64,000 bases of DNA from Candidatus Doudnabacteria bacterium (GCA_016218585.1 JACRDK010000010.1:4974-68973); one strand, 5' to 3'. Positions 23,523-36,694 are shown, counted from the stretch's first letter. Made by a program: numbers and translations. Notes: a model not told the origin generated them from the letters alone.

Positions 23523-24369
23523 AAAAAGCTTAGGGGTTATGTCCCAGTGGCAACCCTTAGTCCCAACCGGACATAAACACCAGCTCAAACTGGCGCTGCT
23601 TCAATACGGATTAAAAAACCGTCCTGGCGTTTGGGCTTGGTTAAAGAAAGCGGGAAAACATATGCAACAGAATTTTAAAATAGCTTCATTTGTCGCCGGA
23701 ACTATGGTCGGCGTGTTAATGTTTAGCGGCGTGCAATACGCCAACAATTCGCCGGAGCTGGCAAAGTATAACCCGTTTGCCACGCCAACGGCGCAGGCCA
23801 AAGCCGAAGTGCGCAATGTAATGCACCGGGTGAGCTTGTTGTCGGAAGACCAGCGCGTGGAATTGGAAAAGAAATTTAAGTTAGATATGACTCAGTCTTT
23901 AAAGGAAGCTTATGAAGCAAAAGATTTGGTAATTTCCGACGCCTCCCAGTTTCAGCCGGTTGAAGGTATGCCAAATACCATTGCTTTAACGCAAAGTTCT
24001 AATGCCGGGTTTGTTACTACTTCTTCCGGAAATGCTTCCACAGCGCCTCTTAGCGTTAGCGGAGCAATGGGTTTTGCGGTTTCCAATGTGGGAACAGGGG
24101 AAGGGGCAGAAAATTCTTCCGTATCTTTGAATGCCGGAACTGTGACCGCGGTTGGCGGGATGAAGAAATTGTCTAAGCGCCTTACCTATACAGACCCTCA
24201 AGGAAATAAAACCGTACTGATGCTGGACGAAGACGGATTGCCGGTAATGAAAATGACAATGCTTTCCGATGAAGAATCTTTAAAACTGAAACAGCAAGCG
24301 GACAGGGGAGAAGTGCTAACCCTCCCGGCCACTGGAGCAACCTTTCATACGGAAGTTGAAGAAAAGTAA
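23503..24369 (+). CDS. Putative anti-sigma factor (cytoplasmic N-terminus, single TM, extracytoplasmic domain)
   Basis: Overlaps the sigma gene by 20 nt; topology typical of ECF anti-sigma factors. Confidence 0.5.
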   Translation: MNKQEIEKSLGVMSQWQPLVPTGHKHQLKLALLQYGLKNRPGVWAWLKKAGKHMQQNFKIASFVAGTMVGVLMFSGVQYANNSPELAKYNPFATPTAQAKAEVRNVMHRVSLLSEDQRVELEKKFKLDMTQSLKEAYEAKDLVISDASQFQPVEGMPNTIALTQSSNAGFVTTSSGNASTAPLSVSGAMGFAVSNVGTGEGAENSSVSLNAGTVTAVGGMKKLSKRLTYTDPQGNKTVLMLDEDGLPVMKMTMLSDEESLKLKQQADRGEVLTLPATGATFHTEVEEK

Positions 24370-24428
24370 AAAAGATAAAGTATAACTAAAAAAAACAGCA
24401 CAGGTCTAGAGCCTGTGCTGTTTTTTTG
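24334..24428. repeat. Direct repeat copy 1 (3' end of anti-sigma gene + bidirectional terminator)
   Basis: About 90% identical to 25263-25358. Confidence 0.85.
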
Positions 24429-24488
24429 ACTTGTAAATTAACCTTTAAATGTAGTATTATTAGCCCAGCCTGCGAAGGAGGCAGAATA

Positions 24489-25193
24489 GTGGAACGTTAC
24501 AAAATAAATACCGTATCGCGAGAAACCGAGCTGCAAATAGCTCAATGGGCAAAAGCGGGTTATGAACACCCGCTCACCGAGCAGTACAAGCATGGTCCGC
24601 ATTTAAATAAACTCCACAATGGCCGGTACTCGGCGAACATTGTCGGGTTTATACTCGTAGGGAAGTTCGGCGAGCCTGGCACGGCCCACGAGCGGCTTCG
24701 GAAAGTTCAGGGCCGGTATTGGGAACTGCTTGGGCTAACCGAAGACCAGTGTGCGCCCCTCGAAGATCTCGCTGCATTTCAAGACTGCAACGACATCGGC
24801 ACTGAAACCATCATCCACGATCTTTTCAACGTGTTACATCTGGAGGCGCACGTTTGCGGGGAAAACGAGTGGAGCCTCACCGGCGATTTCTTGGCTTCGG
24901 GGGCTGTTGTCATTCTGCCCGTTTCTGAACAGGCCAAAGAATGGCTCAAACTCGCTCTGGAACCTCGCAACTTCGAATTGCGGAACGTGCGCGTCAACAA
25001 TCTGTTAACAGGCATGGATGACTGCGTCGAAATGCGCGTATGCACCAACGGCGCCGGGGACTTGGCGGTCTTCGTCGACTATCAAGGTGTCAAACAGGAC
25101 GCCCTCGACCTGCGCCTCTGGTGGCTGACGAGGATGCTCAACCATTTCATGTCCAAGCGCATTGCCGCAATCAAACGTCGCGATGTGGCGTAA
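24489..25193 (+). CDS. Hypothetical protein, GC-rich single-gene insertion
   Basis: GTG start 7 nt after AAGGAGG; markedly higher GC than flanks; no recognisable family; bracketed by about 95-bp direct repeats. Confidence 0.5.
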   Translation: MERYKINTVSRETELQIAQWAKAGYEHPLTEQYKHGPHLNKLHNGRYSANIVGFILVGKFGEPGTAHERLRKVQGRYWELLGLTEDQCAPLEDLAAFQDCNDIGTETIIHDLFNVLHLEAHVCGENEWSLTGDFLASGAVVILPVSEQAKEWLKLALEPRNFELRNVRVNNLLTGMDDCVEMRVCTNGAGDLAVFVDYQGVKQDALDLRLWWLTRMLNHFMSKRIAAIKRRDVA

Positions 25194-25262
25194 CTTCCAA
25201 CATCAACCAAAAAAGCGGCCTGCGCGAAGTCTAAACTTCCGCCGGCCGCTTTGTCTATTACC

Positions 25263-25358
25263 GGAGCAATTTTTCATACAGAAGTTGAAGAAAAATAAAA
25301 AAAGATAAAGTATAACTAAATAAAAAAACAGCGCAGGTCTAGAACCTGTGCTGTTTTT
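25263..25358. repeat. Direct repeat copy 2 (pseudo 3' end of anti-sigma gene + terminator)
   Basis: ggagcaa(tt)tttcatac(a)gaagttgaagaaaa(a)taaaaaagataaagtataactaaa...acagcGcaggtctagaAcctgtgctgtttttt. Confidence 0.85.
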
Positions 25359-26070
25359 TATACTTTGGTAATACTAACTCGCCGTTATACCCATAGGAGT
25401 GCAGTATTGCTTGCCATGCCATTTGAAGTAGTTCTTGAACAGGCACATCGGACTTAATATGCAAAGGATCTTCTTTTGATCCCAATCCCTCTAACCAGCC
25501 CCACTCTAGACCTCTTGTTTCTATTCCTGCATCGTGGATAAAGCCAGACCTGACGCGAATCCATAAATGATCTATGACATCCGAAAATTTTAAAATACTT
25601 TTATTATACTTGAATAGTTCCTCGACTTTGTATCTTTTTGCAATGTCAACCTTTGTTGATTCTGGCAGATTTTCTTCAAGAAATTGAGTTATTTTCTTTT
25701 GTTTCTTATTCCAGAAACCAGCCTTTCCTTTTGCGGTAATTTCCAGCATACCGAACATTATAACAATCATAAATTGAGACCACGTAATTTCCGAATAAAA
25801 TTTATAAAGACCATTTTCTGATTCTGTATTTAAAAGAGTCTTAAGTGGCAGAGCATGTATCTCAAAATAGTTTATTGCATTTACTAGCAACTTCTTTTTA
25901 TCGTCAGCTAACTTTTACAGAGTAGGAAGAAATTCTTCTGATAGTTCGTACCCAATTTGTATGTACTTTTGCTGTTCTTGCCCCCAAGAGTGAACGCGTC
26001 CAAAATATCCTGATTCTGGGCTTAGTACTTCAATTAACTTTCGGTTGATTTTTTCGTTTTGTTCACTCAT
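25339..26070 (-). pseudogene. 243-codon ORF interrupted by one in-frame TAA (25915-25917); hypothetical protein, AT-rich
   Basis: The 51-aa N-terminal ORF (ATG 26070) and the 183-aa ORF (25890-25339) are in the same frame, separated only by TAA; ATG overlaps the upstream gene's TGA as ATGA. Confidence 0.5.
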
Positions 26071-26831
26071 AGAGCTAGATTATTCTGAGTTTTTATCTGG
26101 TGATATTCTTCAATGTTTTTACAAAGCTTGATTCCTAGATCTGTTAAACGATCAGCAGAACGTATTCCGCTCCTGTCACTATAAGTTCTATCGCTGATGA
26201 GCTTTTGGTCGATTAACATAACTTCATCATTTTCAACTAATCCTGCTGAGTTATGACCCGCTAGTCTCGCTATCGTACTTAGCCATCCACTAGCTTCTCC
26301 TGTCATAGCAAGAGTAGAATCTTCCTTCTTATAAACTTTATAAGCCGCCCTTAATGTCAAAAGTTGTGAAGATGTTAATTTTTTTGTTATTTGGAATACC
26401 TGATAATTAAGTATTTCTTCCCCGTCTTTTTCTTTGATAACTGCAAAAAACATCGCTTTTATTGCATCAAATCTGTCTTCATCAGGAGCTTCATTATCTA
26501 TAAAATTTAGCAACTCCGCAAAACTATCAACTGCATATTTTTTGTCCCCATAGTTCGGCTTAATTTTGCCTTTATCTAACAAGAATTGCAATTCTTGGCC
26601 TAGCTGCTGTTTCATCTTGCCAACCAAAGCACCTTGTAAAATTCTACCTCCTGCCAAAATTATTTCCTCTTTTCCCATAGCTAAACCCGCACTTATAATA
26701 GCAGCAATTTTTGTCTTCGGTTGATCCAAGAGTATTTCTAAATCTTTTGGATTACGGTAAGATAAAAGTTCCCCTTGAATCGCAGAGGGTTTAAATGAAT
26801 CCAACTTTTTTACTTTATTATCTTCGTTCAT
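26067..26831 (-). CDS. Hypothetical protein (AT-rich block)
   Basis: Complete ORF; translationally coupled to the downstream ORF (ATGA); no recognisable family. Confidence 0.55.
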   Translation of the reverse strand: MNEDNKVKKLDSFKPSAIQGELLSYRNPKDLEILLDQPKTKIAAIISAGLAMGKEEIILAGGRILQGALVGKMKQQLGQELQFLLDKGKIKPNYGDKKYAVDSFAELLNFIDNEAPDEDRFDAIKAMFFAVIKEKDGEEILNYQVFQITKKLTSSQLLTLRAAYKVYKKEDSTLAMTGEASGWLSTIARLAGHNSAGLVENDEVMLIDQKLISDRTYSDRSGIRSADRLTDLGIKLCKNIEEYHQIKTQNNLAL

Positions 26832-26896
26832 AATATTTTATGTGCAAATTTCATTAAATTTCAAAGTCGCAAGCTATGTAGCATATTTTTGTTAAT

Positions 26897-28024
26897 TTAT
26901 TTACCATAATTATTTAGGACAATTTTATATAGAGTTGATGTTGTCCTAGATTTTGTAAAAGTGCTTTCGTAGAGGGTTTCTCCATTATCAAGTATGTATG
27001 GGTTGTCTAAATAATATTCAGCAATAAAACCAAACATATTATGAGGAATTTCTCTATAACCTAATGCCTCAGCTAAACTTATTTTATCATTTACAATATA
27101 TGGGTTGCCATGATTCCATGAATTATCAAACAGCCAGTTTCCGTTATCGTATTGAAGGACCGTAATTGCCCATTTATGGTCACACCAATGGCATTCAAAA
27201 TCATCTTTTAAATTTATCTGAGGATGCCCTAAAATAAGACGATATGTATCATCCTCCCCTAATTTTGCCCATTTAATAAAGGTATCAGTATCGATAATAT
27301 TTATGGAGATTTTTTTGTCATTATTAATTAAATCTATGGGTTTGGTAAATTCTTCATCTGCAGGTTTTAAAACCAAACATGTCCTCGCGACGCATTCTTT
27401 ATTATATGATAAATTTGGGAGAAATACTTCTTTATAGTTTCCATTAATGTTGTCAATAACAAAATTTATAAGATTCGTTCCACTACCGCAAACATTCCCA
27501 AGCATAGTAAAAATTATTTGTTTTTTCCCCTCATTATTTAAGTCTAAAACCTGACTCTTGTATATCCATAAATCTGTATTATCATCTTTGAACTGCGGTC
27601 TAAATTCATATTTTTTATTATACGGAATAGAAAAGGCGGAAAATAGCAAATTTTGGTTTTTTCTTTCGTATATTTGAATTATTGGCGGTTTTAATGATGG
27701 TGATTTATTAGAACATTGAAGTTTAAAATTTTTATCATTTGCAATTACTAATAAAGAACCGTCTCCATAACCAGCTAAATCAACTTGTTGAATTTGGACA
27801 TCATAATCAGTACCGATTTTGTATTTAATAAATTGTGCAATCCTTTCATTGCTATAATTACTCGGTAATTTACCATAAATAAATACAGAAATAATTATTA
27901 TAAAAATATAGCTAAATAGTAGTTTTACGACATCCTTTCCTTGATCTTTTAAAATTGATAGAATAGATTTTTTTATACCTGGAAAGAAATCTTTAATTTT
28001 ATTAGTGTATTCTTTATATGACAT
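26897..28024 (-). CDS. Hypothetical N-terminally membrane-anchored protein (AT-rich block)
   Basis: TM helix near N-terminus (LLFSYIFIIIISVFIY); Cys/His cluster HWCDHKW; preceded by repeat A copy 1. Confidence 0.55.
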   Translation of the reverse strand: MSYKEYTNKIKDFFPGIKKSILSILKDQGKDVVKLLFSYIFIIIISVFIYGKLPSNYSNERIAQFIKYKIGTDYDVQIQQVDLAGYGDGSLLVIANDKNFKLQCSNKSPSLKPPIIQIYERKNQNLLFSAFSIPYNKKYEFRPQFKDDNTDLWIYKSQVLDLNNEGKKQIIFTMLGNVCGSGTNLINFVIDNINGNYKEVFLPNLSYNKECVARTCLVLKPADEEFTKPIDLINNDKKISINIIDTDTFIKWAKLGEDDTYRLILGHPQINLKDDFECHWCDHKWAITVLQYDNGNWLFDNSWNHGNPYIVNDKISLAEALGYREIPHNMFGFIAEYYLDNPYILDNGETLYESTFTKSRTTSTLYKIVLNNYGK

Positions 28025-28077
28025 AGCTTCGTTGTTGAAAAAAGCTCAGAATTATCCCGTCTCATTATAGACATTAT

Positions 28078-28135
28078 AAGTATGCTACTGTAATTTCCCT
28101 CTGTCAATTTGCTTAATTTGTCCGGGAAAGGGGAG
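28078..28135 (-). promoter_or_regulatory. Repeat A copy 1 (promoter-like: ...GGACAAATTAAGCAAATTGACAGAGGGAAATTACAGTAGCATACTTATAAT on minus strand)
   Basis: Contains TTGACA and TATAAT-like hexamers; located upstream of the 26897-28024 gene. Confidence 0.5.
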
Positions 28136-28139
28136 ATAA

Positions 28140-28169
28140 AAACAAAACACCGCTATAGGCGGTGCTAAG
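28140..28169 (-). terminator. Intrinsic terminator of 28170-28616 gene
   Basis: caccgc..gcggtg hairpin plus TTTTGTTTTT on minus strand. Confidence 0.6.
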
Positions 28170-28616
28170 TTAATTTTCGATGATTTGAATTTGGTTCTCG
28201 GAAAACAAGGGTTTGAGTCTGTTGTAGATTTCTAAATTTACCCCCAAAATTATAACATACAACTTGTTTTTTAAATTTATTTCAATACTTCTATAAGTTC
28301 CGTCGGGTCTGGAAAGAATGGTTCTTTTAATAACGACATTTTTAATGTCAGAATATTTGATTAATATAGGGGTTTGTGAAAATGGTGAAAAGTTTGTGTT
28401 TTTTAAAACAAAGCCATCTTTTTGTAATTTTATTGAATCTTTTGCGCCACCCCTGCCTATAGGGAAGAAATAAATTTTTGCGAAAATTGAACGTACGGGT
28501 ATTTCCTCGCCCTCTATTTTTTCCCAACCGGATACTAATTTATAATAATTGTAGTTTGTAATGCAAAAAAATGTCAAAATTCCTAAAGCAATAATTATAA
28601 ATAGATAATTAATCAT
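28170..28616 (-). CDS. Hypothetical membrane protein with bacterial PH-like C-terminal region
   Basis: Probable start at MINYLF (28616); the track's N-terminal extension is repeat A read as codons; two TM helices. Confidence 0.5.
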   Translation of the reverse strand: MINYLFIIIALGILTFFCITNYNYYKLVSGWEKIEGEEIPVRSIFAKIYFFPIGRGGAKDSIKLQKDGFVLKNTNFSPFSQTPILIKYSDIKNVVIKRTILSRPDGTYRSIEINLKNKLYVIILGVNLEIYNRLKPLFSENQIQIIEN

Positions 28617-28646
28617 TGAATTAAAATAGTTTAAATCACTTAAGTT

Positions 28647-28710
28647 AAGTATGCTACTGTAATTTCCCTCTGTCAATTTGCTTAATTTGTCCGGGAAAGG
28701 GGAGGGGAAA
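28647..28710 (-). promoter_or_regulatory. Repeat A copy 2
   Basis: 61/62 identical to copy 1; directly upstream of the 28170-28616 gene. Confidence 0.5.
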
Positions 28711-28784
28711 ATAGGAGAACCGCAAGCGGGGGCGCTTGCGGTTTCGTTGCTATTGTTGGTCGATGGCCGTTTGCCCCCAGGCCG
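28707..28784. repeat. Repeat B copy 1 (structured element: aaccgcaagc/gcttgcggtt hairpin + ggcc..ggcc hairpin)
   Basis: About 95% identical to 30765-30840; lies 3' of the 28798-29348 gene. Confidence 0.7.
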
Positions 28785-28797
28785 TTGGCGTCGGAAT

Positions 28798-29348
28798 TTA
28801 CTTGGGTTGGAAGAGCGTTATTTGGCTGAAGCACCCAACACCCTGAGTGCGGTCTTGGTCTCTTTCCTGATCTTTGGATAGCAGGGTTTGAGAGCCCAAG
28901 CAGGAGCCGCGAGGATGCCCAAACATCAGTCGGTAGAGCATCTCTTGAATATTGGCGACGCTGGTTGAAGAAATGGAAGCGTTGCACCAATAAGTCTTTC
29001 CCATTGTCGGTTCTCCCTCTTTCAGAGTGTTGCGATCATTCCCACAGGTGTCGATCAGCATGTATGTTGTCATGTCAGCGCTCCGATAGGATCCGAATGG
29101 TAAGTGCGAATCCCAGTGGTAATACACGCTGACAAGGTATATTTTCCCCTTGAAGGTCACTCGCTCGATGACCTCTTGGGGAATTTTCGGTATTTCCTCG
29201 GTGGGGTCAGTCAAGCTCACGCTGAGTTTGACATACTTTTTGCCTGTTGCTTGGTGCTCTTCGATTTGGAGATTCGCAAGAGTCCCAGCTTCCACGAGAC
29301 GATCAATTTCAGCCTCGCCGCCTTTTTTCAACCATATCCGGACTGACA
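28798..29348 (-). CDS. Hypothetical protein (GC-rich island)
   Basis: Best start MSVRIW at 29348 with GAAGGAGG RBS; the track's TTG start is the TTGACA of repeat A copy 3. Confidence 0.5.
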
Positions 29349-29446
29349 TAATACCTCCTTCACCGCTAAGGGGTTCTTGTGGCGAGTACAATTTCGCCAT
29401 CTGCCTATTAGACGGTTGCGGAGTATTTGTAGCAAATAAGCATAAT

Positions 29447-29488
29447 ATTGTCAATTTGCTTAATTTGTCCGGGAAAGGGGAGGGGAAA
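29447..29488 (-). promoter_or_regulatory. Repeat A copy 3 (5' half only, retains TTGACA)
   Basis: gtcaatttgcttaatttgtccgggaaaggggaggggaaa identical to copies 1 and 2. Confidence 0.5.
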
Positions 29489-29504
29489 TTGCTATTTTAA
29501 ATTT

Positions 29505-29541
29505 TGTTGACATCTTTCACATTTGTGAACTATATCAACAA
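29505..29541. promoter_or_regulatory. Operator-like nested palindrome O2 (TTGTTGA..TCACATTTGTGA..TCAACAA)
   Basis: 7-bp outer inverted arms around a TCACA/TGTGA core; followed by conserved AAATTGYYATTTTAAA. Confidence 0.5.
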
Positions 29542-29582
29542 GTTAATTTTATTTAGAAAAGGAAAAATTGTCATTTTAAAAC

Positions 29583-29620
29583 TTGTCTAAAACTCTCACA
29601 TTTGTGAATATTTTAGACAA
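29583..29620. promoter_or_regulatory. Operator-like nested palindrome O1 (TTGTCTAAAAC..TCACATTTGTGA..GTTTTAGACAA)
   Basis: 10-bp perfect outer arms plus the same core; near-identical to 30697-30734. Confidence 0.55.
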
Positions 29621-29659
29621 ATTGGTTTTATTTTATTTAAGGAAAGGGGAGGGAATTGG

Positions 29660-29702
29660 AAAAGCGCCGGAGCCCGTATGGTGTACGGGGCGGCGCTTTT
29701 GC
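29660..29702. terminator. Bidirectional terminator (agcgccg..cggcgct) downstream of 29708-30484 gene
   Basis: GC stem flanked by A4 and T4 runs. Confidence 0.65.
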
Positions 29703-29707
29703 GGCGG

Positions 29708-30484
29708 TCAGTAGGTTAAAACGGCTTGCTTGATGTCAGAGATGTTGGTAGCGTGTGGTACGGTAATTCCATCCAAAGTTGTTTCGGTAAACACTTTGTG
29801 TGGCCCAACATGCTTGATCACGCCATTCACGGGCGCCCCATTCTTTAGGGTCAGCGTAACCATCATGCCTTCGTTCCCTGCGAGACCCTTCTGTGACGGG
29901 AAGTCGATAACCTTCACAGGAGCAAACTTCTCGGCCACAAAGCCCGGCGCATAGCGTATGACCACGCGGAACAGCTCTTGGTTATCCTTCAAGAGCGCGC
30001 CCAGGGCTTCGATTATGGTCGAGCCGAAGGCAAACGGCAACGGGGAATCTTCTTCCCCGCGCTGTGAGGGTCTGGCATCTGGATTGTCCAGAATCTGGGC
30101 TCTGATGATGTTGTCCGCGTTGCTCAATTCAATTGGCACTCGGCGAGTCTCGGTCATGCCCTCGTCGCTGTACTGGAAGAATTGCTCGGGTTCGTACGAG
30201 CAGACTTCGCCGCTTTCATCGCAGTTGCCAATTCTGACCGAGCCGTGGGACCATCCTCGAGAGGTCTTGAACATGAAGCACTCGGCTGTAATGTCCAAGA
30301 AGTCCTGGCGCTGGACGCGGATGGACAGATGCCGGAAATTTCCGAGCGTGCCATCGGGGTTTACGGGGTTGTCGTCGGGGTAAGGCTCAACTTCGTGTTT
30401 GAGCCAAATCAAGTCTGGTTGGTCTGCCATTTGCACCATCTTGAGCGCAAATTTCAGAGAAAAACCTTCCGAATCTTTAGACAT
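29708..30484 (-). CDS. Hypothetical protein (GC-rich island)
   Basis: 258-aa ORF; long structured 5' leader containing operator O3 and repeat B copy 2. Confidence 0.55.
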   Translation of the reverse strand: MSKDSEGFSLKFALKMVQMADQPDLIWLKHEVEPYPDDNPVNPDGTLGNFRHLSIRVQRQDFLDITAECFMFKTSRGWSHGSVRIGNCDESGEVCSYEPEQFFQYSDEGMTETRRVPIELSNADNIIRAQILDNPDARPSQRGEEDSPLPFAFGSTIIEALGALLKDNQELFRVVIRYAPGFVAEKFAPVKVIDFPSQKGLAGNEGMMVTLTLKNGAPVNGVIKHVGPHKVFTETTLDGITVPHATNISDIKQAVLTY

Positions 30485-30696
30485 AGTTGTTCTCCATCAT
30501 CCGGATGCCTGTTTTACCAGGTACTGCCATCTCCGGCAGCGAACTACGCGTAAAATACGCACAGATCGCTGCCGAAGAATAAACTCCTCCTTTACGACAT
30601 TAAAGTATATCAAAAGGCTTAGAAATGTCCAGGTTAATTTATAAAAAATATTTATCTATTCTAGAAAGGGTAATTAAAAAATTGCCATTTTAAATC

Positions 30697-30734
30697 TTGT
30701 CTAAAACTCTCACATTTGTGAATATTTTAGACAA
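30697..30734. promoter_or_regulatory. Operator-like nested palindrome O3
   Basis: 37/38 identical to O1. Confidence 0.55.
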
Positions 30735-30764
30735 GTTGATTTTATTTTATTTAAGGAAAGGGGG

Positions 30765-30840
30765 AAAATAGGAGAACCGCAAGCGGGGGTGCTTGCGGTT
30801 TCGTTGCTATTGTTGGTCAATGGCCGTTTGCCCCCAGGCC
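30765..30840. repeat. Repeat B copy 2
   Basis: See copy 1. Confidence 0.7.
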
Positions 30841-30868
30841 ACTAGCGAGAATCAGGGTTCGTCGCGCT

Positions 30869-31159
30869 CTACTTGAATAGGAGCTCTTTGAATTCGCTGA
30901 AGGTGCACAGGGAATGCGGAATCAGGATCACGCAACCCGATTCGGGATCGTACGTCCCAGCGAAAGTGAATGCGGCTTCTTTGAGCCACTCGCTGTTCCG
31001 TAGGATTGCCCGCCGCAGAGCGCGAGCGGAGTGGATGTAGCACTCGTTGAAATGTTCGTGTTTAACCCATCTCGGCCTTCGGTTCCTGCCTCCTCGGCTC
31101 AAAGCGGTCACTCCTTCCGGAGTTTCCCCTTTAATGATGATATAACCAGAAAGGTACAT
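30869..31159 (-). CDS. Hypothetical small protein
   Basis: Likely ATG at 31159; GC-rich. Confidence 0.4.
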   Translation of the reverse strand: MYLSGYIIIKGETPEGVTALSRGGRNRRPRWVKHEHFNECYIHSARALRRAILRNSEWLKEAAFTFAGTYDPESGCVILIPHSLCTFSEFKELLFK

Positions 31160-31373
31160 CAATTCTTCATCCTTTGTAGATGTATTCTGCTCTGCCCGGG
31201 TAATTTACCAGGGTAAGTCAGTTTAGCAATTCTATCATAAATTAGAATAAGTTCAAGTACTGAATATTTTTTTAAACAAAATAAAAAACTCTAAAGTTGG
31301 GAGCAGAAATGATGCAGCGCGAGGAACTTTTGGTTCCCCGCGCTGTGTGCTGGTGGTTGTTGTTGGCCTGCAA

Positions 31374-31598
31374 TCAAACCGTCCTGGGTTCGGTTTGTGC
31401 GCCTTGGGAAGCGCAAGGGTTTTTTGCGGCGAGCCGCTTGGCCCTATCCTGGTCAATTAGCTCGTTAATCACATCGTACACAACCCTTTTGCTGAATGGG
31501 CATTCAGCGCCGTCAGCGGTGGTGTGGGTTTCAATGTGGTCTTCGAGCTCTGAAAATTGGATTCGGCTGTTGCAGCCCGGGCAAACTGAGATTATCAT
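31374..31598 (-). CDS. Small Cys/His protein (putative zinc ribbon)
   Basis: CPGC...H..H...C; ATG overlaps upstream gene stop (ATGA). Confidence 0.4.
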   Translation of the reverse strand: MIISVCPGCNSRIQFSELEDHIETHTTADGAECPFSKRVVYDVINELIDQDRAKRLAAKNPCASQGAQTEPRTV

Positions 31599-31888
31599 GC
31601 CTTTCCTTTCGAACGCCGAAATCTTCTTGGCTTCTTGAAAATGACTGGGCCGTCGGCGGCCTTGAAGCTGAGAGCTGGACGCCCGGGTTTGGGCACTTCC
31701 TGGACTCCGGGGACCCTGGTGGCCTGCTTTTGCTTCTTGCCCACGAAGTACAGAATGCCTCCTTGCCAGGCGAGTTTCCGGCCCGGATACTCGCGCATTG
31801 CCAGTTCTTTCAAGCGCTTTCTCATCTTCAGGTAAGGCGCCCGTCCGCCAGGGTTTTCTTCGCCATGAGTCGTGCGGGGGTTAGCCAT
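31595..31888 (-). CDS. Hypothetical basic small protein
   Basis: AAGGAGGAG RBS 5 nt before ATG; preceded by GC-hairpin module copy 1. Confidence 0.45.
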   Translation of the reverse strand: MANPRTTHGEENPGGRAPYLKMRKRLKELAMREYPGRKLAWQGGILYFVGKKQKQATRVPGVQEVPKPGRPALSFKAADGPVIFKKPRRFRRSKGKA

Positions 31889-31960
31889 ACAACTCCTCCT
31901 TGTTGAAGTATAATACTGTGAGGCATAGTAGCAAAAAGCAATAACAAAGTCCAGGTATGA

Positions 31961-32000
31961 ACAAGCGCCGGGTCCGCGGGGGTGCGGACTCGGCGCTTTG
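31961..32000. repeat. 40-nt GC hairpin repeat copy 1 (AACAAGCGCCGGGTCCGCGGGGGTGCGGACTCGGCGCTTT), terminator-like
   Basis: Near-identical copy at 33707-33745; both followed on minus strand by promoter-like ctggacttt..tata region and an RBS-bearing gene. Confidence 0.7.
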
Positions 32001-32020
32001 TGCTTGTTGACGTGAGTACG

Positions 32021-32539
32021 TTAACCGCTGGCCTTTTTCCAAATAAGGCTTAAGGCCAGAGCGGCTAAGCTGATCCAAAACCACCAGTTGTACAGCTTGG
32101 TGTGCGGATACGACTTGTGGTCCGGCGGCAGGATTAAAATGAATTTGTCTTTTCTCTTTATCATCAGCCTGTCCCTAATGAGAGAAATGAACAGCTGGTC
32201 GTCCGGCGGTTCATTCGACAAGTTGTATCTGATTGTCGCTTCCTGAATCTCCACCAGGTTGTTGAACCAGATTTGAAACGGAGGCGACGCCGGGTTAACC
32301 GCGAAATGAAGGTCGGTTTTCTTTAAGCCGTAACCTCTGAGGTGGGTGACGGCTGTGTCGATGTTTTTCTGGCAGTCCTTCATATTTTTGGCAAACACGG
32401 CTTGCCGCAAGGGCTGCTCTACCTTATTGGCGAAGTCGTAGCCGTGGTGCCACCTGAGAATCAGGCACAAAGCCAAAGCGGCGAAGGCCAGGGAAATCAT
32501 CGCTTCTTGCCACGGAAAGAATCTGTTATTCACGTTTTC
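32021..32539 (-). CDS. Single-pass membrane protein, paralog A (WFNNL motif)
   Basis: Best start GTG 32539 with AGGAGG RBS; TM ISLAFAALALCLIL; paralogous to 32563-33096. Confidence 0.5.
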   Translation of the reverse strand, partial: ENVNNRFFPWQEAMISLAFAALALCLILRWHHGYDFANKVEQPLRQAVFAKNMKDCQKNIDTAVTHLRGYGLKKTDLHFAVNPASPPFQIWFNNLVEIQEATIRYNLSNEPPDDQLFISLIRDRLMIKRKDKFILILPPDHKSYPHTKLYNWWFWISLAALALSLIWKKASG

Positions 32540-32562
32540 CTCCTGAATGCTGTGCGAGTGTC

Positions 32563-33096
32563 TTAATATCCGTTGTCGTCCTTTGCAACCCACCAGCCAA
32601 GACCGCCTACAAACATCATCGTGCTTACCAAAGCCCAACACAGGTAGAGGATGCCGTAGGGGTAGGTGGAGATGCCGGTAGGTGATTCAACCACCAGAAG
32701 TCCTCGCTCTTCCTTAAGAATTTTCTCGCGGACAGTTTCGAGCATTTCTTCGCCTGAGGGGAAGAAGCCCTCCTGTCCTTGCCTCTCTAGCGCTTCTTGA
32801 AGGTTGGCCAGGTTGTTAAACCACGCCTGCGTGTCGGAGATGTTTTGATTGCGCGGCGCATTGTTCGGAGTTTTCTGAAAACCCATCTCCTTCAGGTGCG
32901 AGATAGCTACGCTTAAGTGCTCAAGGCATTCCTTGGTGCTCTTGGAGTAAGCGGCACGACTCAAAGGTTCTTCGATGTTGCGGTTGAACGCTGTGAGGTT
33001 TGAAATAGACATCAGGACGCAGAACAGCATTAACAGCAATCCTATGCCCGCGATGTTCACGCTCAACGGTGTAGCTTCTTTGTTTTGCGTTTGCAT
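32563..33096 (-). CDS. Single-pass membrane protein, paralog B (WFNNL motif)
   Basis: Shared blocks: basic-Cys..H(L)xxxG..KT..AWFNNLANLQEA; N-terminal TM. Confidence 0.5.
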   Translation of the reverse strand: MQTQNKEATPLSVNIAGIGLLLMLFCVLMSISNLTAFNRNIEEPLSRAAYSKSTKECLEHLSVAISHLKEMGFQKTPNNAPRNQNISDTQAWFNNLANLQEALERQGQEGFFPSGEEMLETVREKILKEERGLLVVESPTGISTYPYGILYLCWALVSTMMFVGGLGWWVAKDDNGY

Positions 33097-33314
33097 TCAT
33101 ATCCTCCTGTATTTTCCACGAACAAATAAAAATACCACATTGCTGTGGTTGTGTCAATTGTGATTATAATTTACTGAGAAGTAAAATAAAAATTTTAATA
33201 GCGCAGGAGCCCCCACTTCCTGCGCTATTTCTGCTGGCATTGTTGCCGTTAGTTCAAGTACGATGCGTTCGGTTCGACGTTGTTGGTTATTCAGCCGACT
33301 CTCTTGCCGCCCTG

Positions 33315-33635
33315 CTACCGCTCGGTCACGAACTTCTTTTCGCAGTTGGGGCAATCGTTGGGCCCAAGCTTCACGTTGTTGATGAACCGTTTGCAATAAG
33401 GGCAGTCGGAGCTGCCATACATTGCACCTGTGTAGTAAGGGTACCACTGGGTCTTTTTGGCGCTTGGTTTCTTGTCCAAGGAGCGCAGGTATTCCCACCG
33501 GTTTTGCCGAGCCGCTTGAACTGCTTTTTTGGAAATAACCTCGCCATTCCAATTGCAGCGGAACCGGTTGCGGGCAAGGGGGGTAAACGTAATGCGTTTG
33601 TCCAGCTGGACTGTGCCTTGATTCGATATCGGCAT
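33315..33635 (-). CDS. Small zinc-ribbon protein (CPYC...CPNC)
   Basis: AAGGAGG RBS; preceded by GC-hairpin module copy 2. Confidence 0.45.
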   Translation of the reverse strand: MPISNQGTVQLDKRITFTPLARNRFRCNWNGEVISKKAVQAARQNRWEYLRSLDKKPSAKKTQWYPYYTGAMYGSSDCPYCKRFINNVKLGPNDCPNCEKKFVTER

Positions 33636-33706
33636 CGAGTCCTCCTTGCAGCAAACTATACCAAACTGTTCAAAAAAAGTCCAGATTTATAAAAAAGTAA
33701 AAATTA

Positions 33707-33745
33707 ACAAGCGCCGGGTCCGCGGGGTGCGGACTCGGCGCTTTT
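33707..33745. repeat. 40-nt GC hairpin repeat copy 2
   Basis: See copy 1. Confidence 0.7.
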
Positions 33746-33857
33746 ATATAGCTTGCCTGATTTCCGTTCAGGCGGACGGCTGGGTTACAATTGTGCTCAA
33801 TAAAAAAACAAATGAGTACGGTAAAATTAGAAGTCAGTTACTTTGGTGGTGTGACGG

Positions 33858-34058
33858 TTAGTTTTTTTCTTCTAGTTTTTTTCTCATTCCCTCCAAATGG
33901 TTTTGAAAGTCAATGCCAACAAAGTGCGCCTTAGCAACGCATTCCGCACAGTGGGACAGGTGGCTTACGGCTTGCGCATCGTCATCGGTTAATGGCCCCC
34001 CAGAACCAGCAAACAGGCGAGCAAGCTGCTCGTCTGACACGTGATCGTCTTTATCCAT
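33858..34058 (-). CDS. Small protein with anti-sigma-like zinc-finger motif (HxxxCxxC)
   Basis: AGGAGG RBS; SHLSHCAECVAKAH. Confidence 0.4.
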   Translation of the reverse strand: MDKDDHVSDEQLARLFAGSGGPLTDDDAQAVSHLSHCAECVAKAHFVGIDFQNHLEGMRKKLEEKN

Positions 34059-34238
34059 ACAGCCTCCTCTTGTTAAGAAAGACTATATTATATAGAAGAC
34101 AAGGTCAAGAAAAAAATAGCGAAAAGTAAAAACTCCCGCATGAAAATGAACAATAAAAATAAAGCCCTGTTATTTAAAGAAATGAAGATGCCGCCGACAG
34201 CCTTAATGGCATTGTCGGCGGCGGTTTGGAAGAGACAG

Positions 34239-34427
34239 TTAGTCCTTAGTGGGGGGAACTTTTTTCCCTGTTCCTCCGCACGAAGGGCACTTGGTAACTT
34301 CGGTGCTCCAGAGGCATGAGCATTCCATTAACCCTTGCGAGTCTTTGCCGTCCCCGCGGCAAAGTGGACACACGCCAATTCCTGTTCCACCACAATCGGG
34401 GCACAGTTCGTCAGTTTCGATAATCAT
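34239..34427 (-). CDS. 62-aa protein composed of DnaJ-type CXXCXGXG zinc-finger repeats
   Basis: CPDCGGTG, CPLCRGDG, CPSCGGTG; GGAGG RBS. Confidence 0.5.
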   Translation of the reverse strand: MIIETDELCPDCGGTGIGVCPLCRGDGKDSQGLMECSCLWSTEVTKCPSCGGTGKKVPPTKD

Positions 34428-34441
34428 AATTCCTCCATTGT

Positions 34442-34726
34442 TTACGGTCCGGCTACGGGCACGTCACATTTGCCCTCATAGGCAATGTTCATAACCGGTT
34501 CTCCTGCCCACTTTGTCCTTTCCAGCCAAAGAATTTTGGCCGACGGACAGGAATCATGGAAAACCTTGGCGGCCTCCGCAGCGCTCGCGGCATCAACAAA
34601 GACGCTGCTTGGTTTTGTGGCGGTGCTTCCTGCCCAAATGCGTGACGCTGCGACCTTCTTGTTTTTTGGCGGAGCCGTAAAGCCCACGCTTAAACAAATT
34701 AAAAACAACACTAGCAGCCTCCTCAT
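34442..34726 (-). CDS. Small secreted protein
   Basis: Signal peptide MRRLLVLFLICLSVGFTAPP; AGGAGG RBS; first gene of a 3-gene operon. Confidence 0.5.
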   Translation of the reverse strand: MRRLLVLFLICLSVGFTAPPKNKKVAASRIWAGSTATKPSSVFVDAASAAEAAKVFHDSCPSAKILWLERTKWAGEPVMNIAYEGKCDVPVAGP

Positions 34727-34819
34727 GGCTACCTCCTTTTTATTTCAATGCAATTATATCATTTTGGCTTTGAGTGTGGAAAGTTTAAAAAAGCGGAAAA
34801 ATTTGCATATAAATATTTA

Positions 34820-34848
34820 AAACCACCGCGTACTGCGGTGGTTTTAAA
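34820..34848 (-). terminator. Intrinsic terminator (accaccgcg..cgcggtggt)
   Basis: Hairpin plus T-run after the 34849-35253 gene. Confidence 0.6.
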
Positions 34849-35253
34849 TTATTGTACTTTAGGTTTATTCTTTTTTTGTTTTTTAGCAAATTCATCGCTC
34901 AGTCTATCTATGGATTCCTCGGAGCTTCCTTGTTCCATTAAAAACTTTTTCATAATTTTTTTGTCTCTGTCGGTTACTTCAATAGCTGGCTCCGGGTTTC
35001 TTGCATATATTTTTTCAGCAGCAGCAATTGCCTCGTCAGGGTTTATTTTTCCCTCTTTGTCCCATTTTTTGCAGAACAACCTAAACTCATCCATATTTTC
35101 AACCTCAACAAAAGCCGCAGCCGCGCCGTCAGCATCAAAAAGGTCAGTCTGTTTTAATAGTCCAAGTAAAATATTAACCATGGCTTCGTTATAGGCACGG
35201 GTTCCTCTAACTCTTTCCCAGTTTATGTAATTTGTATTTTCTTTTTCAGACAT
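34849..35253 (-). CDS. Hypothetical protein (AT-rich), between island and ssrA
   Basis: 134-aa ORF; no recognisable family. Confidence 0.5.
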   Translation of the reverse strand: MSEKENTNYINWERVRGTRAYNEAMVNILLGLLKQTDLFDADGAAAAFVEVENMDEFRLFCKKWDKEGKINPDEAIAAAEKIYARNPEPAIEVTDRDKKIMKKFLMEQGSSEESIDRLSDEFAKKQKKNKPKVQ

Positions 35254-35391
35254 ATATTTATTTAGTGGCCAAACAAGGCCGTTATTTATAAATCTTAATT
35301 AATTGTATCATTACAATGCTTTTGGACAAAATGCTAATCCCTAGTAATTAAATTTAAATATGACCTAAAAGGCGATAGGGAGTTTAAAAAC

Positions 35392-35424
35392 AATTAAAAA
35401 AACCGCTTTAGGCGGTTTTTTTAA
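35392..35424 (-). terminator. Terminator immediately 3' of tmRNA
   Basis: aaccgcctaaagcggtt hairpin flanked by A7/T7. Confidence 0.75.
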
Positions 35425-35431
35425 ATTCACT

Positions 35432-35821
35432 TGGTGGAGATGCCGGGAGTTAAACCCGGGTCCAAAACTAATTCACTTTCCAATTGTTCACAAGATTAGC
35501 TAAGTTTAATACCTCTATAACAATAACTTAGCAAATAGTTATAAAGGGCGATTTACGTGTCTTAAGCTTGCGGGTGCAAATCAAATCCGCAAACAGCAGT
35601 CCAAAATGAACCCGGCGATCTTAGGTTTGGACAAACTTAAGGCCGGGATCTCAGCTTAATAAATTAAGCTAAGACTGGTTGTAAGTCGGCGTTTTGAAAC
35701 GCGGCTACAACTTTATTCCATGCGTTAGCATTTGTTTGTGTCCGAGGGATTTACGAGTCTTCAGACTGGCTCGTCTTGCATATTAGAAAATGTCAAAGTC
35801 CTGTCAAAATCCGTCATCCCC
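35432..35821 (-). ncRNA. ssrA: Transfer-messenger RNA (tmRNA, SsrA)
   Basis: Minus strand 5' GGGGAUGACGGAUUUUGACAGG (compare GGGGACGUUACGGAUUCGACAGG). 7-bp acceptor stem pairing with 3' CAUCUCC-ACCA including the G3:U70 wobble. T-arm CCGGG-UUUAACU-CCCGG. Internal tag-like ORF ...DLQPVLA-TAA. -35/-10 promoter just upstream. smpB is present 9 kb away. Confidence 0.8.
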
Positions 35822-35849
35822 GTGGGCTATAGCATATCATTTTTTATAA

Positions 35850-36135
35850 GTATTGACAATACCGCAGAAATATGGTATTTTTATGTGTTACAAGCTTCCT
35901 CTTATGCTGATAAAGTCTATCAGTTTTAGCGGGAGCTGGTCTGGGTGGACATGGCAAGGACAGGTGTTGGTATGAGCTGATCATATCTTCACACCCTCTC
36001 TTGCAGCCTCCACTTGCTCGTTTGACCGAACAAACGCTCAGGCGACCTTCAGGGTCAGCTCCCATAATTTCCACGGAGGAATAAAAATTAAAAGCAACGG
36101 TAGGCGACGCAATCGCTATGCCGTTTTTTAATATA
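35850..36135 (+). ncRNA. Candidate structured non-coding transcript divergent from ssrA
   Basis: TTGACA-17nt-TGGTATTTT promoter sharing its palindromic -35 with the ssrA promoter; about 230 nt with long-range GGGAGCTGG/CAGCTCCC pairing; ends in hairpin plus TTTTTT at about 36100-36130; no ORF. Confidence 0.3.
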
Positions 36136-36208
36136 TAGGTTGTCTTTAGTATTCAAAAAGGCCAGCGCGTGCGTCGTCATTGACGTTTCGCGCTGGCCTT
36201 TGCTGTTG

Positions 36209-36694
36209 TTATTGGAGCTTCACGATTGCGTTGACCGCTTTTGGAGCGGTTGGTTTGGCGTTTTCCTGCCGCACGTACAACAGGGCGTGCAGCGTAGCCA
36301 TAACAGAAGTGACCTTATCCTCCGAGAGCGATCTGAAGCAGTCCCCAAATACCGCAACATCGAACGGACTGTTCATTTTCTTGGCGTTAAGGTACCCTGT
36401 AAGGAAAAACATCGTCTGCTCCAGGCTTTGACCCGATACGCCGGCCTTCTCCAGCTGGAGCTTTAGGGTCGGAACCGGTATATAGCCTCCAGCCGTTTTG
36501 AGCGTGTTGACCGCTTCGGCTGCGAGAACCGTAATCTTTTCCAGAGTTTGGGCAAACCCGCCGCTCAGATCGGGATCGTTGAACACCGGTGAGATGATGG
36601 TGTCCAGCTTGCGTTCCGGCATGTCATCATCTATTGGCTCAAAAGGAGGTGGAGTACGCCGTTTCCTAGTTTGCTTCTTTGATTTTGTGGTCAT
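36209..36694 (-). CDS. Hypothetical protein (GC-rich)
   Basis: 161-aa ORF, basic N-terminus; terminator hairpin ggccagcgcg..cgcgctggcc downstream. Confidence 0.5.
   Translation of the reverse strand: MTTKSKKQTRKRRTPPPFEPIDDDMPERKLDTIISPVFNDPDLSGGFAQTLEKITVLAAEAVNTLKTAGGYIPVPTLKLQLEKAGVSGQSLEQTMFFLTGYLNAKKMNSPFDVAVFGDCFRSLSEDKVTSVMATLHALLYVRQENAKPTAPKAVNAIVKLQ

Follow-up and report, generated by a model that had tools for sequence, protein, structure and literature searches.

Regions of variable gene content and foreign composition have been described beside the tmRNA gene of Dehalococcoides, where the ssrA-GIs (High Plasticity Region 2) lie downstream of the single-copy ssrA, DsiB is found directly at ssrA and some islands lack integration modules (PMC3146451). 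Putative mobile promoters, highly similar promoter segments located upstream of unrelated genes, were reported in 'Promoter propagation in prokaryotes' (PMC3488235), and abortive infection by Abi-alpha (EF2833 from prophage 6 of Enterococcus faecalis V583; PF14337) has been shown experimentally (PMC6356687). Here we analysed a region of ~11 kb, running from an anti-sigma gene to ssrA, on the chromosome of an uncultured Candidatus Doudnabacteria (CPR), together with its surroundings in a 64-kb stretch of DNA, the window. Like the Dehalococcoides islands, the window contains a foreign, variable region, and in its relatives serine recombinases of ~530-540 aa, sometimes with ParB-type cargo, abut ssrA. 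Unlike them, it has no recombinase, 20-bp ssrA direct repeat or integration module, and its ssrA has its own terminator. On balance, we think that gene units have accreted on either side of ssrA to form a plasticity zone, shuffled via common non-coding modules, and that the region is not a single mobile element. The patchwork of mostly orphan genes is real and the hot spot is of a known type; novelty as a genetic system is not shown.

The composition of the genes changes abruptly along the region (coordinates of all features are given in Table 1). Third-position G+C (GC3) is 0.460 +/- 0.057 in 36 host genes of the window, whereas between the anti-sigma gene and ssrA it ranges from 0.21 up to 0.70. 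The GC-rich genes (24489-25193, 28798-34726 and 36209-36694) have values of 0.48-0.70, with z up to +4.1, the AT-rich genes at 25339-28676 have values of 0.21-0.33, with z down to -4.3, and the gene at 34849-35253 has 0.33. The alternation described in the earlier note is confirmed. Its view of the locus as foreign and mosaic is supported as well, and none of the relatives examined has the region in the same form. ssrA does not mark a change in composition, because there is a GC-rich orphan (GC3 0.61) beyond it, and the break in gene order relative to the relatives extends over ~19.6-41.6 kb, wider than the island first proposed. In each relative the gene order around ssrA is different, next to a conserved HisPhos/PLD/ArgS/IleS flank. 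No sibling was found that is near enough for an empty site to be recognised; the most similar tmRNA shows 85% identity. A cassette architecture had also been proposed, and we found that both promoter-like sites (42 vs 22.9 +/- 4.3 in shuffles) and terminator-like sites (34 vs 15.5 +/- 4.0) are about twice as frequent between 24000 and 37300 as expected. Most ORFs are preceded by an AGGAGG-type ribosome-binding site.

Table 1. Features of the region around ssrA, with positions counted from the first nucleotide of the window
Feature	Position	Strand	Remarks
Anti-sigma 3' end and bidirectional terminator hairpin, duplication copy 1	24331..24432	+	
234-aa GC-rich gene	24489..25193	+	GC3 0.64, z +3.2; duplication on both sides
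Anti-sigma 3' end and terminator, diverged duplication copy 2	25260..25365	+	
Two same-frame ORFs, 51 and 183 aa	25339..26070	-	Nonsense-interrupted ~243-aa gene
254-aa protein	26067..26831	-	Helical N-terminal domain and C-terminal winged helix
375-aa AT-rich protein	26897..28024	-	N-terminal membrane helix; GC3 0.21, z -4.3
Repeat A copy 1	28077..28142	-	Promoter module CCCCTTTCC-CGGACAAATTAAGCAAA-TTGACA-17 nt-CATACT
AT-rich membrane-protein gene (168 aa)	28170..28676	-	Between two 100%-identical repeat A copies
Repeat A copy 2	28646..28711	-	59 nt at 100% to copy 1
Repeat B copy 1	28704..28790	-	3' UTR and intrinsic terminator of gene 28798-29349
183-aa GC-rich gene	28798..29349	-	Start MSVRIW after GGGGAGGGGGG
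Partial repeat A	29424..29489	-	40 nt at 100% (29449-29488)
Palindromic module, two tandem copies	29484..29570 and 29563..29649	-	18-bp-arm hairpin, TCACAAATGTGA centre
258-aa GC-rich orphan	29708..30484	-	HY918_01930, Candidatus Doudnabacteria
Structured 5' leader of 258-aa gene	30486..30600	-	Long hairpin, z -4.8
Palindromic module, third copy	30677..30763	-	Directly follows repeat B
Repeat B copy 2	30761..30847	-	Terminator of gene 30869-31162
Three small GC-rich ORFs, 97, 74 and 97 aa	30869..31888	-	
T1-like terminator hairpin	31315..31345	-	CAGCGCGGGGAACC...GGTTCCTCGCGCTG
GC hairpin terminator copy 1	31957..31999	-	95% to copy 2
WFNNL-motif protein pair, 170 and 177 aa	32021..33096	-	Membrane helix at both ends
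P1 promoter	33118..33161	-	TTGACA-N2-ACCAC-N6-GTGGTATTTT, upstream of 177-aa WFNNL gene
106-aa Cys-rich zinc-ribbon-like protein	33315..33635	-	E 0.009 to L032 neighbour
GC hairpin terminator copy 2	33703..33744	-	95% to copy 1
Three small ORFs, 66, 62 and 94 aa	33858..34726	-	
134-aa AT-rich gene adjoining ssrA	34849..35253	-	Own promoter, no Shine-Dalgarno sequence
Terminator hairpin directly 3' of ssrA	35394..35424	-	Expected state of unoccupied site
ssrA (tmRNA), complete	35432..35821	-	
Second P1 copy	35852..35889	+	Divergent from ssrA, -35 region common to both
161-aa GC-rich gene, 5' side of ssrA	36209..36694	-	Beyond the island first proposed

All four families of repeats which had been reported for the locus exist and are local to these genes: further copies of repeat A, the palindrome, repeat B and the GC hairpin, as well as of the anti-sigma duplication, were found nowhere else in the 64 kb. 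The partial repeat A is 100% identical in its upstream part, -35 hexamer included, and deviates in the spacer and the -10. The copies of repeat B are 97.5% identical over 80 nt (28704-28790 vs 30761-30840), the terminator of the first consisting of AACCGCAAGC-N6-GCTTGCGGTT plus a T-run. P1 occurs in nine copies across six genomes. The T1-like hairpin resembles T1 of the relatives L002 and L032 by eye; blastn with the T1 segment of L032 gave no match in the window. The anti-sigma duplication (~100 bp; 24331-24432 vs 25260-25365) aligns over 106 nt with 88% identity, and its first copy includes the last 13 codons of the anti-sigma gene. Because the coding differences of the second copy are mainly at synonymous positions (three codons with synonymous-type changes and one that is replaced, TGA[T/I]FHTEVEEK*), they suggest that this copy was derived from a diverged homologue and not by decay in place. 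A terminator hairpin of the same type in L002 is 93% identical.

What can be seen directly is that non-coding modules with 88-100% identity adjoin unrelated ORFs, the only paralogues being the WFNNL pair (~24% mutual identity), and that direct repeats enclose two units: 106 nt at 88% identity around the 234-aa gene, and 59 nt at 100% around the 168-aa gene. Judging from this arrangement, the modules may have spread by duplication and recombination and could act as 40-100-bp patches of homology for the insertion, duplication and loss of units. The zone would then consist of three parts: GC-rich units of one gene each, encoding small proteins (membrane, secreted or Cys-rich), with P1, T1 and the palindrome also present in relatives; an AT-rich operon of different origin, now probably under the local promoter module repeat A; and a single GC-rich gene which may have been inserted at the anti-sigma terminator. 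Every unit would be transcribed separately, with its own sigma-70-type promoter, Shine-Dalgarno sequence, ORF and intrinsic terminator. The locus is similar to mobile promoters in the 100% identity of repeat A within the window and in the occurrence of P1 in six genomes, but here the units also have terminators and a palindromic module in common, with copies that cluster at a single locus.

The ~85-nt palindromic module was originally regarded as an operator. Its core, TCACAAATGTGA, occurs three times where 0.24 occurrences are expected, and the best pair of modules is 90% identical over 105 nt. The predicted hairpins have dG values of -17 to -28 kcal/mol, with z of -5 to -8.7 (-16.8 and -19.4 kcal/mol, z -5.1 and -7.5, for the tandem copies). 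Five copies are known, from two genomes, each beside these orphan genes; compensatory changes affect 5 of the 18 arm pairs, 92% of the cells are paired, and the covariation score of these five sequences was reached in none of 500 shuffles. Both modules of L002 lie between convergent genes, just 3' of a terminator, with no promoter downstream. A simple operator is thus unlikely, since the module follows terminators even where there is no downstream gene and its arms covary, and the most plausible reading is a small repeat element which forms a hairpin, resembles a MITE and is lodged just 3' of terminators. Correia, ERIC and BIME are examples of MITE- or REP-like palindromic intergenic repeats. 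Like these, the element in the window is non-coding, hairpin-forming and intergenic, and adjoins terminators; unlike them, it is known in five copies in two genomes only, beside orphan genes, and a target duplication is no more than suggestive. A CCCTTTC-like sequence flanks all three modules of the window on either side.

None of the island proteins matched a family at threshold in Pfam, PHROGs, PADLOC or NCBIfam. The 234-aa gene begins with GTG after GAAGGAGG and has its own terminator and its own promoter, which overlaps the terminator T-run; its product had no match in family, PDB, phage or plasmid searches, and the 183-, 134- and 161-aa proteins had none in family or PDB searches. Very large protein collections were searched with the 258-aa, WFNNL and 254-aa proteins: among 5.8 billion proteins the first matched only itself and the WFNNL family has four members. 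Because the 254-aa protein proved not to be an orphan, the other 'orphans' may have distant relatives too. NCBI locus-tag numbering leaves space for one annotated gene at 30869-31888, where the 74-aa ORF is Cys/His-rich. The 66-aa ORF, once called anti-sigma-like, indeed contains HxxxCxxC (HLSHCAEC), but it matches no family. In the 62-aa ORF the three CxxCxGxG motifs of the supposed DnaJ-type finger are visible, but the Pfam match is below threshold (E 2.5e-4; 21.7 vs a cut-off of 32.7 bits). The 94-aa ORF has a signal-peptide-like N-terminus. We infer that the cargo probably comprises accessory envelope, interaction or anti-phage proteins.

The GC-rich genes are not peculiar to this spot. 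In L032 a zinc-ribbon gene is followed by a WFNNL gene with the order, promoter and terminator of the window in another context, and T1 and P1 lie between consecutive small genes. L002 has, in yet other surroundings, a WFNNL gene with a promoter and a terminator of the window type, and also a P1 copy, the two palindromic modules and the anti-sigma-type terminator; its homologous cassettes are far from ssrA. The GC-rich part can be counted among a rare set of single-gene units, specific to the lineage, whose promoter, terminator and ~85-nt palindrome are common to relatives. The GC-rich bias of the cassette genes recurs in the relatives and could be a property of the gene family and not a sign of recent transfer.

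The AT-rich operon starts with the 375-aa gene, which is probably transcribed from repeat A and whose product has no family or PDB match. For the 168-aa gene, the true start is probably a downstream ATG (MINYLF...), because the listed TTG is the -35 hexamer of repeat A. The nonsense-interrupted gene of the earlier note was found as described, with ORFs 25915-26070 and 25339-25890 in one frame and a lone TAA between them. It contains an RSGFIH (Rx4H) motif; no family was matched by the parts or the fused sequence, and the single-sequence AF2 model was unusable (pLDDT 40.6). The 254-aa protein is a member of a widespread uncharacterised family, encoded by solitary accessory genes in varied contexts, mostly beside a small membrane protein. 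Could the locus be a defence island, with an operon that works as an abortive-infection-type module, made up of a membrane protein and a sensor like Abi-alpha, and with small proteins from further conflict genes? Such gene neighbourhoods and the mobile-element hot spot would fit, weak matches to Pfam Abi_alpha occur in 7 of the 79 family members, and the window protein is, like Abi-alpha, largely helical (254 vs 272 aa) and encoded by a solitary accessory gene. However, the window protein itself misses the Abi_alpha model, its family was not found in IMG/VR or on phage contigs, PADLOC detected nothing among ten island proteins or in the 254-aa family, the structure comparison gave nothing beyond a generic winged helix, and the TAA breaks one gene of the operon. 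We regard a defence island as unlikely, and this possible likeness, at the level of sequence, is the single weak lead left of the novel conflict system which had been suggested.

That ssrA is an integration hot spot, another early suggestion, holds for the lineage, because a large serine recombinase gene overlaps its 3' end in 13 of 26 loci from related metagenomic genomes, with PrimPol, HsdM, Rep or ParB as cargo. In L025 a decayed recombinase copy lies at ssrA, and L010 has an IS transposase. Could the entire 11 kb be what is left of ssrA-targeting integrative elements or prophages, one or several, in which the recombinase and the att sites decayed? The use of ssrA by such elements, the in-place decay in L025 and the foreign composition would agree with this, and the autonomous promoter-gene-terminator units resemble phage morons in that single genes carry a promoter and a terminator of their own and differ from the surroundings in composition. 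Unlike morons, they have no prophage context or phage homology: there was no credible match in PHROGs, none by tblastn among 50,697 phage and 72,556 plasmid records, and no copy of the modules in IMG/VR. Moreover, tblastn of the window with recombinases from five relatives found only 22-24 codons overlapping ssrA, and ssrA is at once followed by its terminator, exactly as in the unoccupied relative L021, so that it is currently without an element. The window has no credible att duplicate, the sole copy of the ssrA 3' end being a 14-mer within an intact, family-conserved ORF which aligns with its paralogues across that point, and a similar GC-rich orphan lies beyond ssrA. A decayed element is accordingly quite improbable, and both a decayed prophage and a single island integrated at ssrA, as first envisaged, lack support.

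We consider it very unlikely that the region is an integron-like gene-capture platform, with mobile cassettes as its units and with the palindromes, perhaps also the hairpin terminators, serving as sites for a recombinase whose gene is located elsewhere. As in integron arrays and CALINs, unrelated and mostly co-oriented small ORFs form an array with palindromes at some junctions. The 18-bp-arm palindrome, with a short spacer in the middle, is reminiscent of serine-recombinase or attC-type sites, its arms covary, in two genomes it is located at the 3' end of units, and direct repeats surround two units. But IntI is absent, the ORFs tested across the 64 kb include no recombinase of any kind, palindromes occupy only 2 of ~17 junctions and have no GTTRRRY/RYYYAAC core, and each gene has its own promoter. 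The anti-sigma direct repeat reaches about 60 nt into coding sequence, which is more in keeping with exchange driven by homology than with a site-specific one.

All support for the sequence comes from one sample, and how the blocks are ordered across the repeats depends on the MAG assembly. Composition changes coincide with the repeats, and Logan contigs L001, L004 and L005, from an independent assembly of the same run, end at exactly these repeats, yet a chimera of blocks from different organisms joined at common short repeats is highly improbable, as L001 covers the sigma and anti-sigma genes, the GC-rich gene and the AT-rich operon in one contig, L005 runs from the 161-aa gene through ssrA and genes 34849-35253 and 34442-34726 to ~33.8 kb, the repeats (40-106 nt) are shorter than typical reads, and the same modules are present to the left and right of each junction as well as in relatives. 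On the far side of ssrA, the second copy of P1 is followed by a structured, apparently non-coding stretch.

The island between the anti-sigma gene and ssrA is a mosaic, and the earlier note's observation is confirmed with two corrections: a GC-rich orphan of 161 aa lies on the opposite side of ssrA from the island, and the break in gene order is wider than the interval first described. Third-position G+C (GC3) of the island genes reaches 0.70 (z +4.1) and falls to 0.21 (z -4.3), compared with 0.460 +/- 0.057 for the 36 host genes of the window, and the genes form two classes, GC-rich and AT-rich. The four repeat families and the duplication of the anti-sigma 3' end are all present, with no further copy within the 64 kb. 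The proposed cassette architecture also holds, as there are 42 promoter-like sites where 22.9 +/- 4.3 are expected and 34 terminator-like sites where 15.5 +/- 4.0 are expected; AGGAGG-type ribosome-binding sites precede most ORFs. The nonsense-interrupted gene was found again as two ORFs in one frame (25915-26070 and 25339-25890) with a single TAA between them. The flanks carry ordinary chromosomal functions (ArgS, IleS, PcrA, IF-3, KsgA, NRAMP and CDF transporters, sortase, PspC).

Among the island proteins, those with the NCBI entries HY918_01930, _01940 and _01945 (from a Candidatus Doudnabacteria MAG, contig of 191,920 bp) are recorded as hypothetical, and no protein of the island reached the threshold in Pfam, PHROGs, PADLOC or NCBIfam. 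The suggested DnaJ-type mini-protein does show three CxxCxGxG motifs, but its match to PF00684 (E 2.5e-4, 21.7 bits) is under the 32.7-bit cut-off; similarly, the anti-sigma-like protein has the HLSHCAEC (HxxxCxxC) motif but no Pfam match at E<=0.1, and does not fit the zf-HC2 model. PDB sequence searches were negative for eight island proteins and for the 254-aa family profile. Family searches gave no support for the 183-aa ORF as a HEPN protein on the strength of its RSGFIH motif, and its single-sequence AF2 model was unusable (pLDDT 40.6). With Rfam at a relaxed threshold, the tmRNA was the only credible match in 24-37.3 kb.

Features of the island, its surroundings and related loci (positions are those of the window unless a contig is named)
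Feature	Location	Size and identity
Repeat A		59 nt and 40 nt at 100% identity
Palindromic module, three window copies		best pair 90% over 105 nt
Repeat B		97.5% over 80 nt
GC hairpin		95% identity
Anti-sigma 3' end and terminator duplication		106 nt, 88% identity
tmRNA gene (ssrA)	35432-35821 (-)	
GC-rich orphan beyond ssrA	36209-36694	161 aa
Additional DNA, ssrA to histidine phosphatase gene	35822-41661	~5.8 kb
ssrA-abutting large serine recombinase	L012:1427-3025	
ssrA-abutting large serine recombinase	L014:349-1935	
ssrA-abutting large serine recombinase	L029:11182-12798	
ssrA-abutting large serine recombinase	L030:3600-5216	
ssrA-abutting large serine recombinase	L019:9515-11131	
Second perfect palindrome	L002:733-757	
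5' leader of the 258-aa gene	30486-30600 (-)	
P1 pointing away from ssrA, with the stretch after it	35852-36110 (+)	
Structured stretch downstream of this P1	35890-36030	
TTAGTA/TTGGTA-rich repeats	8802-8909, 44177-44264, 57480-57519	35-40 nt, 85-97% identical
Long ORF at the window start	1210-8295 (+)	2361 aa

Could the GC-rich genes be a single foreign import? The largest protein collections were searched with three families, the 258-aa orphan, the WFNNL membrane proteins and the 254-aa protein of the AT-rich operon. Among 5.8 billion proteins the 258-aa protein matched only itself, and the WFNNL proteins number four: two paralogues in the window (~24% identical), one on a contig of a GTDB relative (L002) and one on a Logan contig (L032). 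On L032 a Cys-rich zinc-ribbon gene is followed by the WFNNL gene, the same order as in the window (33315-33635, then 32563-33096), and the same junction, a T1 terminator hairpin and then the promoter module P1, recurs between three small genes in a row. P1 (TTGACA-N2-ACCAC-N6-GTGGTATTTT) was counted nine times in six genomes, with hardly any variation across the promoter spacer. Both in the window and in the distant contig L019, one copy is divergent from ssrA and has its -35 region in common with it; in L019 it drives small GC-rich ORFs which do not match the window island proteins. The counterpart genes on L002 have a higher G+C than their neighbors. Since the WFNNL family, P1, T1 and the GC bias recur in relatives, the GC-rich part is a set of rare, fast-evolving, lineage-specific single-gene units with common regulatory modules and not a one-off import.

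The tmRNA gene is on the minus strand, so the island occupies the interval on its 3' side. When metagenomes were scanned for the final 26 nt of the window tmRNA, 26 loci came up; for those that align over the full gene, tmRNA identity is 69-85%. Several relatives share, 5' of ssrA, the order HisPhos-(two small genes)-PLD-(one gene)-ArgS-IleS, and the HisPhos, PLD, ArgS and IleS genes lie in the window at 41.7-50.8 kb. Compared with L023 and L030, the window has extra DNA before the histidine phosphatase gene, consisting of the 161-aa orphan, a 69-aa ORF, an AEC transporter, an 88-aa ORF, a PspC-domain protein and a 118-aa ORF. This extra DNA, together with the position of the AEC gene in L010 on the opposite side of ssrA, indicates that both ssrA flanks have been rearranged. 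The 3' side differs in every relative compared; no close sibling genome was found, and the relatives, at up to 85% tmRNA identity, are too distant to show an empty anti-sigma/ssrA junction.

The earlier note's suggestion that ssrA is an integration hot spot has proved well founded. At 13 of the 26 loci an ORF of ~530 aa lies antisense to ssrA and directly against it, and its final 22 codons (...MVEMPGVKPGSKT...SQD) overlap the terminal 68 nt of the tmRNA gene. All three tested by Pfam (L029, L012 and L014) are large serine recombinases with Resolvase and Zn_ribbon_recom domains, two of them also with a Recombinase domain. Given the overlap with ssrA, one stretch of the element's DNA seems to provide both the 3' end of ssrA and the C-terminus of the recombinase. 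The cargo beside the relatives' recombinases includes PrimPol, HsdM, a Rep protein and ParB; L025 has recombinase fragments only, and L010 a DDE transposase. These loci resemble the ssrA genomic islands of Dehalococcoides, where a 540-aa serine recombinase, DsiB, is found at ssrA and where islands accumulate in tandem, some without integration modules (PMC3146451). With this parallel, the relatives' recombinases demonstrate that ssrA is a hot spot in this lineage. The sortase, the S/N-rich surface protein, the ArsR regulator and the ECF sigma/anti-sigma pair (19566-24369) are absent from the L025 interval which runs from ssrA to the homologue of the conserved 19148-19561 region, and these genes may be part of one variable zone with the island.

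How, then, did the mosaic arise? Modules that are 88-100% identical stand beside unrelated ORFs. The 234-aa gene is bracketed by two copies of the anti-sigma 3' end, and the 168-aa gene by two identical copies of repeat A. Most differences between the two anti-sigma copies are at synonymous codon positions, a pattern which would be expected if the second came from a diverged homologue and did not decay in place. Units bracketed by direct repeats would be the expected outcome of single-crossover insertion or of unequal crossing-over at short homologies. The presence of the same promoters upstream of unrelated genes also agrees with the published idea of mobile promoters (PMC3488235). On balance we favor, with some reserve, the view that the island is a plasticity zone built up by accretion next to an integration hot spot, in which mostly orphan genes of mixed origin, each expressed on its own, have been shuffled via common non-coding modules.

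Perhaps the island serves defense, an unlikely reading although it is compatible with accretion. In its favor, seven of 79 homologues of the 254-aa protein weakly match Abi_alpha (PF14337, best E 6.5e-5), a family for which EF2833 offers an abortive-infection precedent (PMC6356687); the window protein itself has no match at E<=0.1. Against PADLOC-DB 2.0, ten island proteins gave no match at E<=1 and the 79 family members two chance-level matches, and the 254-aa model had no significant Foldseek match among PDB and viral structures. The homologue genes in L033, L034, L039, L040 and L041 repeatedly adjoin a gene whose small product (60-108 aa, but 260 aa in L041) has one or two membrane helices, which hints at a two-gene module; in L040 an IS200/IS605 Y1 transposase is also close.

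It is slightly less probable still that the window holds a decayed ssrA-integrated element, despite the use of ssrA in relatives. We used as a yardstick the Islander-type definition of a tRNA/tmRNA-integrated genomic island (PMC4383910), and found no recombinase, no displaced ssrA fragment and no replacement of the ssrA 3' end. Pfam detected no recombinase domain in the ORFs tested, whether of the island or of its flanks, and tblastn of five relatives' serine recombinases against the window returned only the codons coinciding with ssrA itself. A simple terminator hairpin lies directly 3' of the window ssrA, as in the recombinase-free L021, whereas in occupied relatives recombinase coding sequence takes its place. 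A displaced ssrA fragment was sought in the window and seven relatives, and only a 14-mer (CCGGCATCTCCACC, 32665-32678) was found, an exact match to the tmRNA 3' end in the same orientation with the terminal A excluded. It lies inside the intact 177-aa WFNNL ORF. As this ORF is homologous to its paralogues across the site and still aligns beyond the match, we judge the 14-mer to be probably coincidental, though improbable a priori. The island is thus not an ssrA-integrated element now. The idea of a decayed prophage fared no better: PHROGs gave two marginal short-Cys-motif matches only, tblastn found zero in 50,697 phage records, the AT-rich and GC-rich proteins, concatenated by set, matched nothing in phage and plasmid records by tblastn, and IMG/VR viral contigs contained no repeat A, P1, palindrome, 258-aa protein or 254-aa family.

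Five copies of the palindromic module are known, three in the window and two on the 6.5-kb contig L002, and each lies directly 3' of an orphan gene's terminator. The module had been called an operator. Since both L002 copies are between convergent genes with no promoter downstream, we consider a simple operator doubtful. The 18-bp arms keep their symmetry via two-sided changes (CTA/TAG, TGA/TCA, TCA/TGA), with compensatory changes in five of 18 arm pairs and 92% of cells paired. Slid controls were 33-56% paired, and none of 500 shuffles reached the observed covariation score or paired percentage. The predicted hairpins have dG of -17 to -28 kcal/mol (z -5 to -8.7). With five sequences the covariation evidence is modest. 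CCCTTTC-like sequence on both sides of the window copies is suggestive of a target duplication, and we read the module as a small hairpin-forming repeat resembling a MITE. A genome-wide REP- or MITE-type repeat would have many dispersed copies; within the 64-kb window no copies lie outside 28-31 kb, and two sit on L002. A second perfect palindrome, GTATACAAAGAT-G-ATCTTTGTATAC, lies on L002 between the palindromic module and the terminator of the CDF gene.

Taken further, P1/repeat A, T1/repeat B and the ~85-nt covarying palindrome could be the parts of a lineage-specific cassette-exchange system in these CPR bacteria, a proposal which we regard as quite improbable. Orphan genes would be packaged as promoter-gene-terminator-hairpin units; these would move between genomes and into the ssrA-flanking hot spot; and a trans-acting recombinase, possibly one of the relatives' ssrA serine recombinases, would use the palindrome as its recombination site. 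A site-specific cassette platform is very unlikely. An integron or CALIN would have R''/R' cores (RYYYAAC...GTTRRRY) at every cassette boundary, and the palindromes are at two junctions only; the attC reading was rejected because by inspection the arms (TTGT-NNN-A[AT]A...ACAA) have no GTTRRRY core, and Pfam found no tyrosine recombinase in the ORFs tested. Least probable of all is an assembly chimera. All the sequence support is from a single sample. Outside the MAG, the three proteins that were looked up have exact copies only on short Logan contigs, all from run SRR12113407, and these contigs end at the island repeats.

CPR bacteria have small genomes, and little is known of how they gain and regulate accessory genes. 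The locus and its relatives show that ssrA is heavily used by serine-recombinase elements in this lineage, that the DNA flanking it accumulates mostly orphan genes of mixed origin, and that the same few promoter, terminator and hairpin modules recur beside unrelated genes and in several genomes. For the present, the locus is a well-documented case of something already known, and has one testable defense lead, the Abi-alpha-like family. If the modules were shown to drive gene exchange or co-regulation, they would offer a handle on accessory-gene turnover in as-yet uncultured organisms.

Some smaller features of the window may be mentioned. The 258-aa gene has a 5' leader that folds into a long hairpin (z -4.8), with AAGGAGG on its 5' side and no obvious start codon downstream; this could be a regulatory leader. 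The P1 copy that points away from ssrA shares its -35 hexamer, and the stretch downstream is strongly structured (z -4.4), with no ribosome-binding site or ORF; it is perhaps a small RNA, or what is left of a lost gene. Elsewhere there is a long ORF at the window start, and a family of TTAGTA/TTGGTA-rich intergenic repeats, unrelated to those of the island, recurs along the window.
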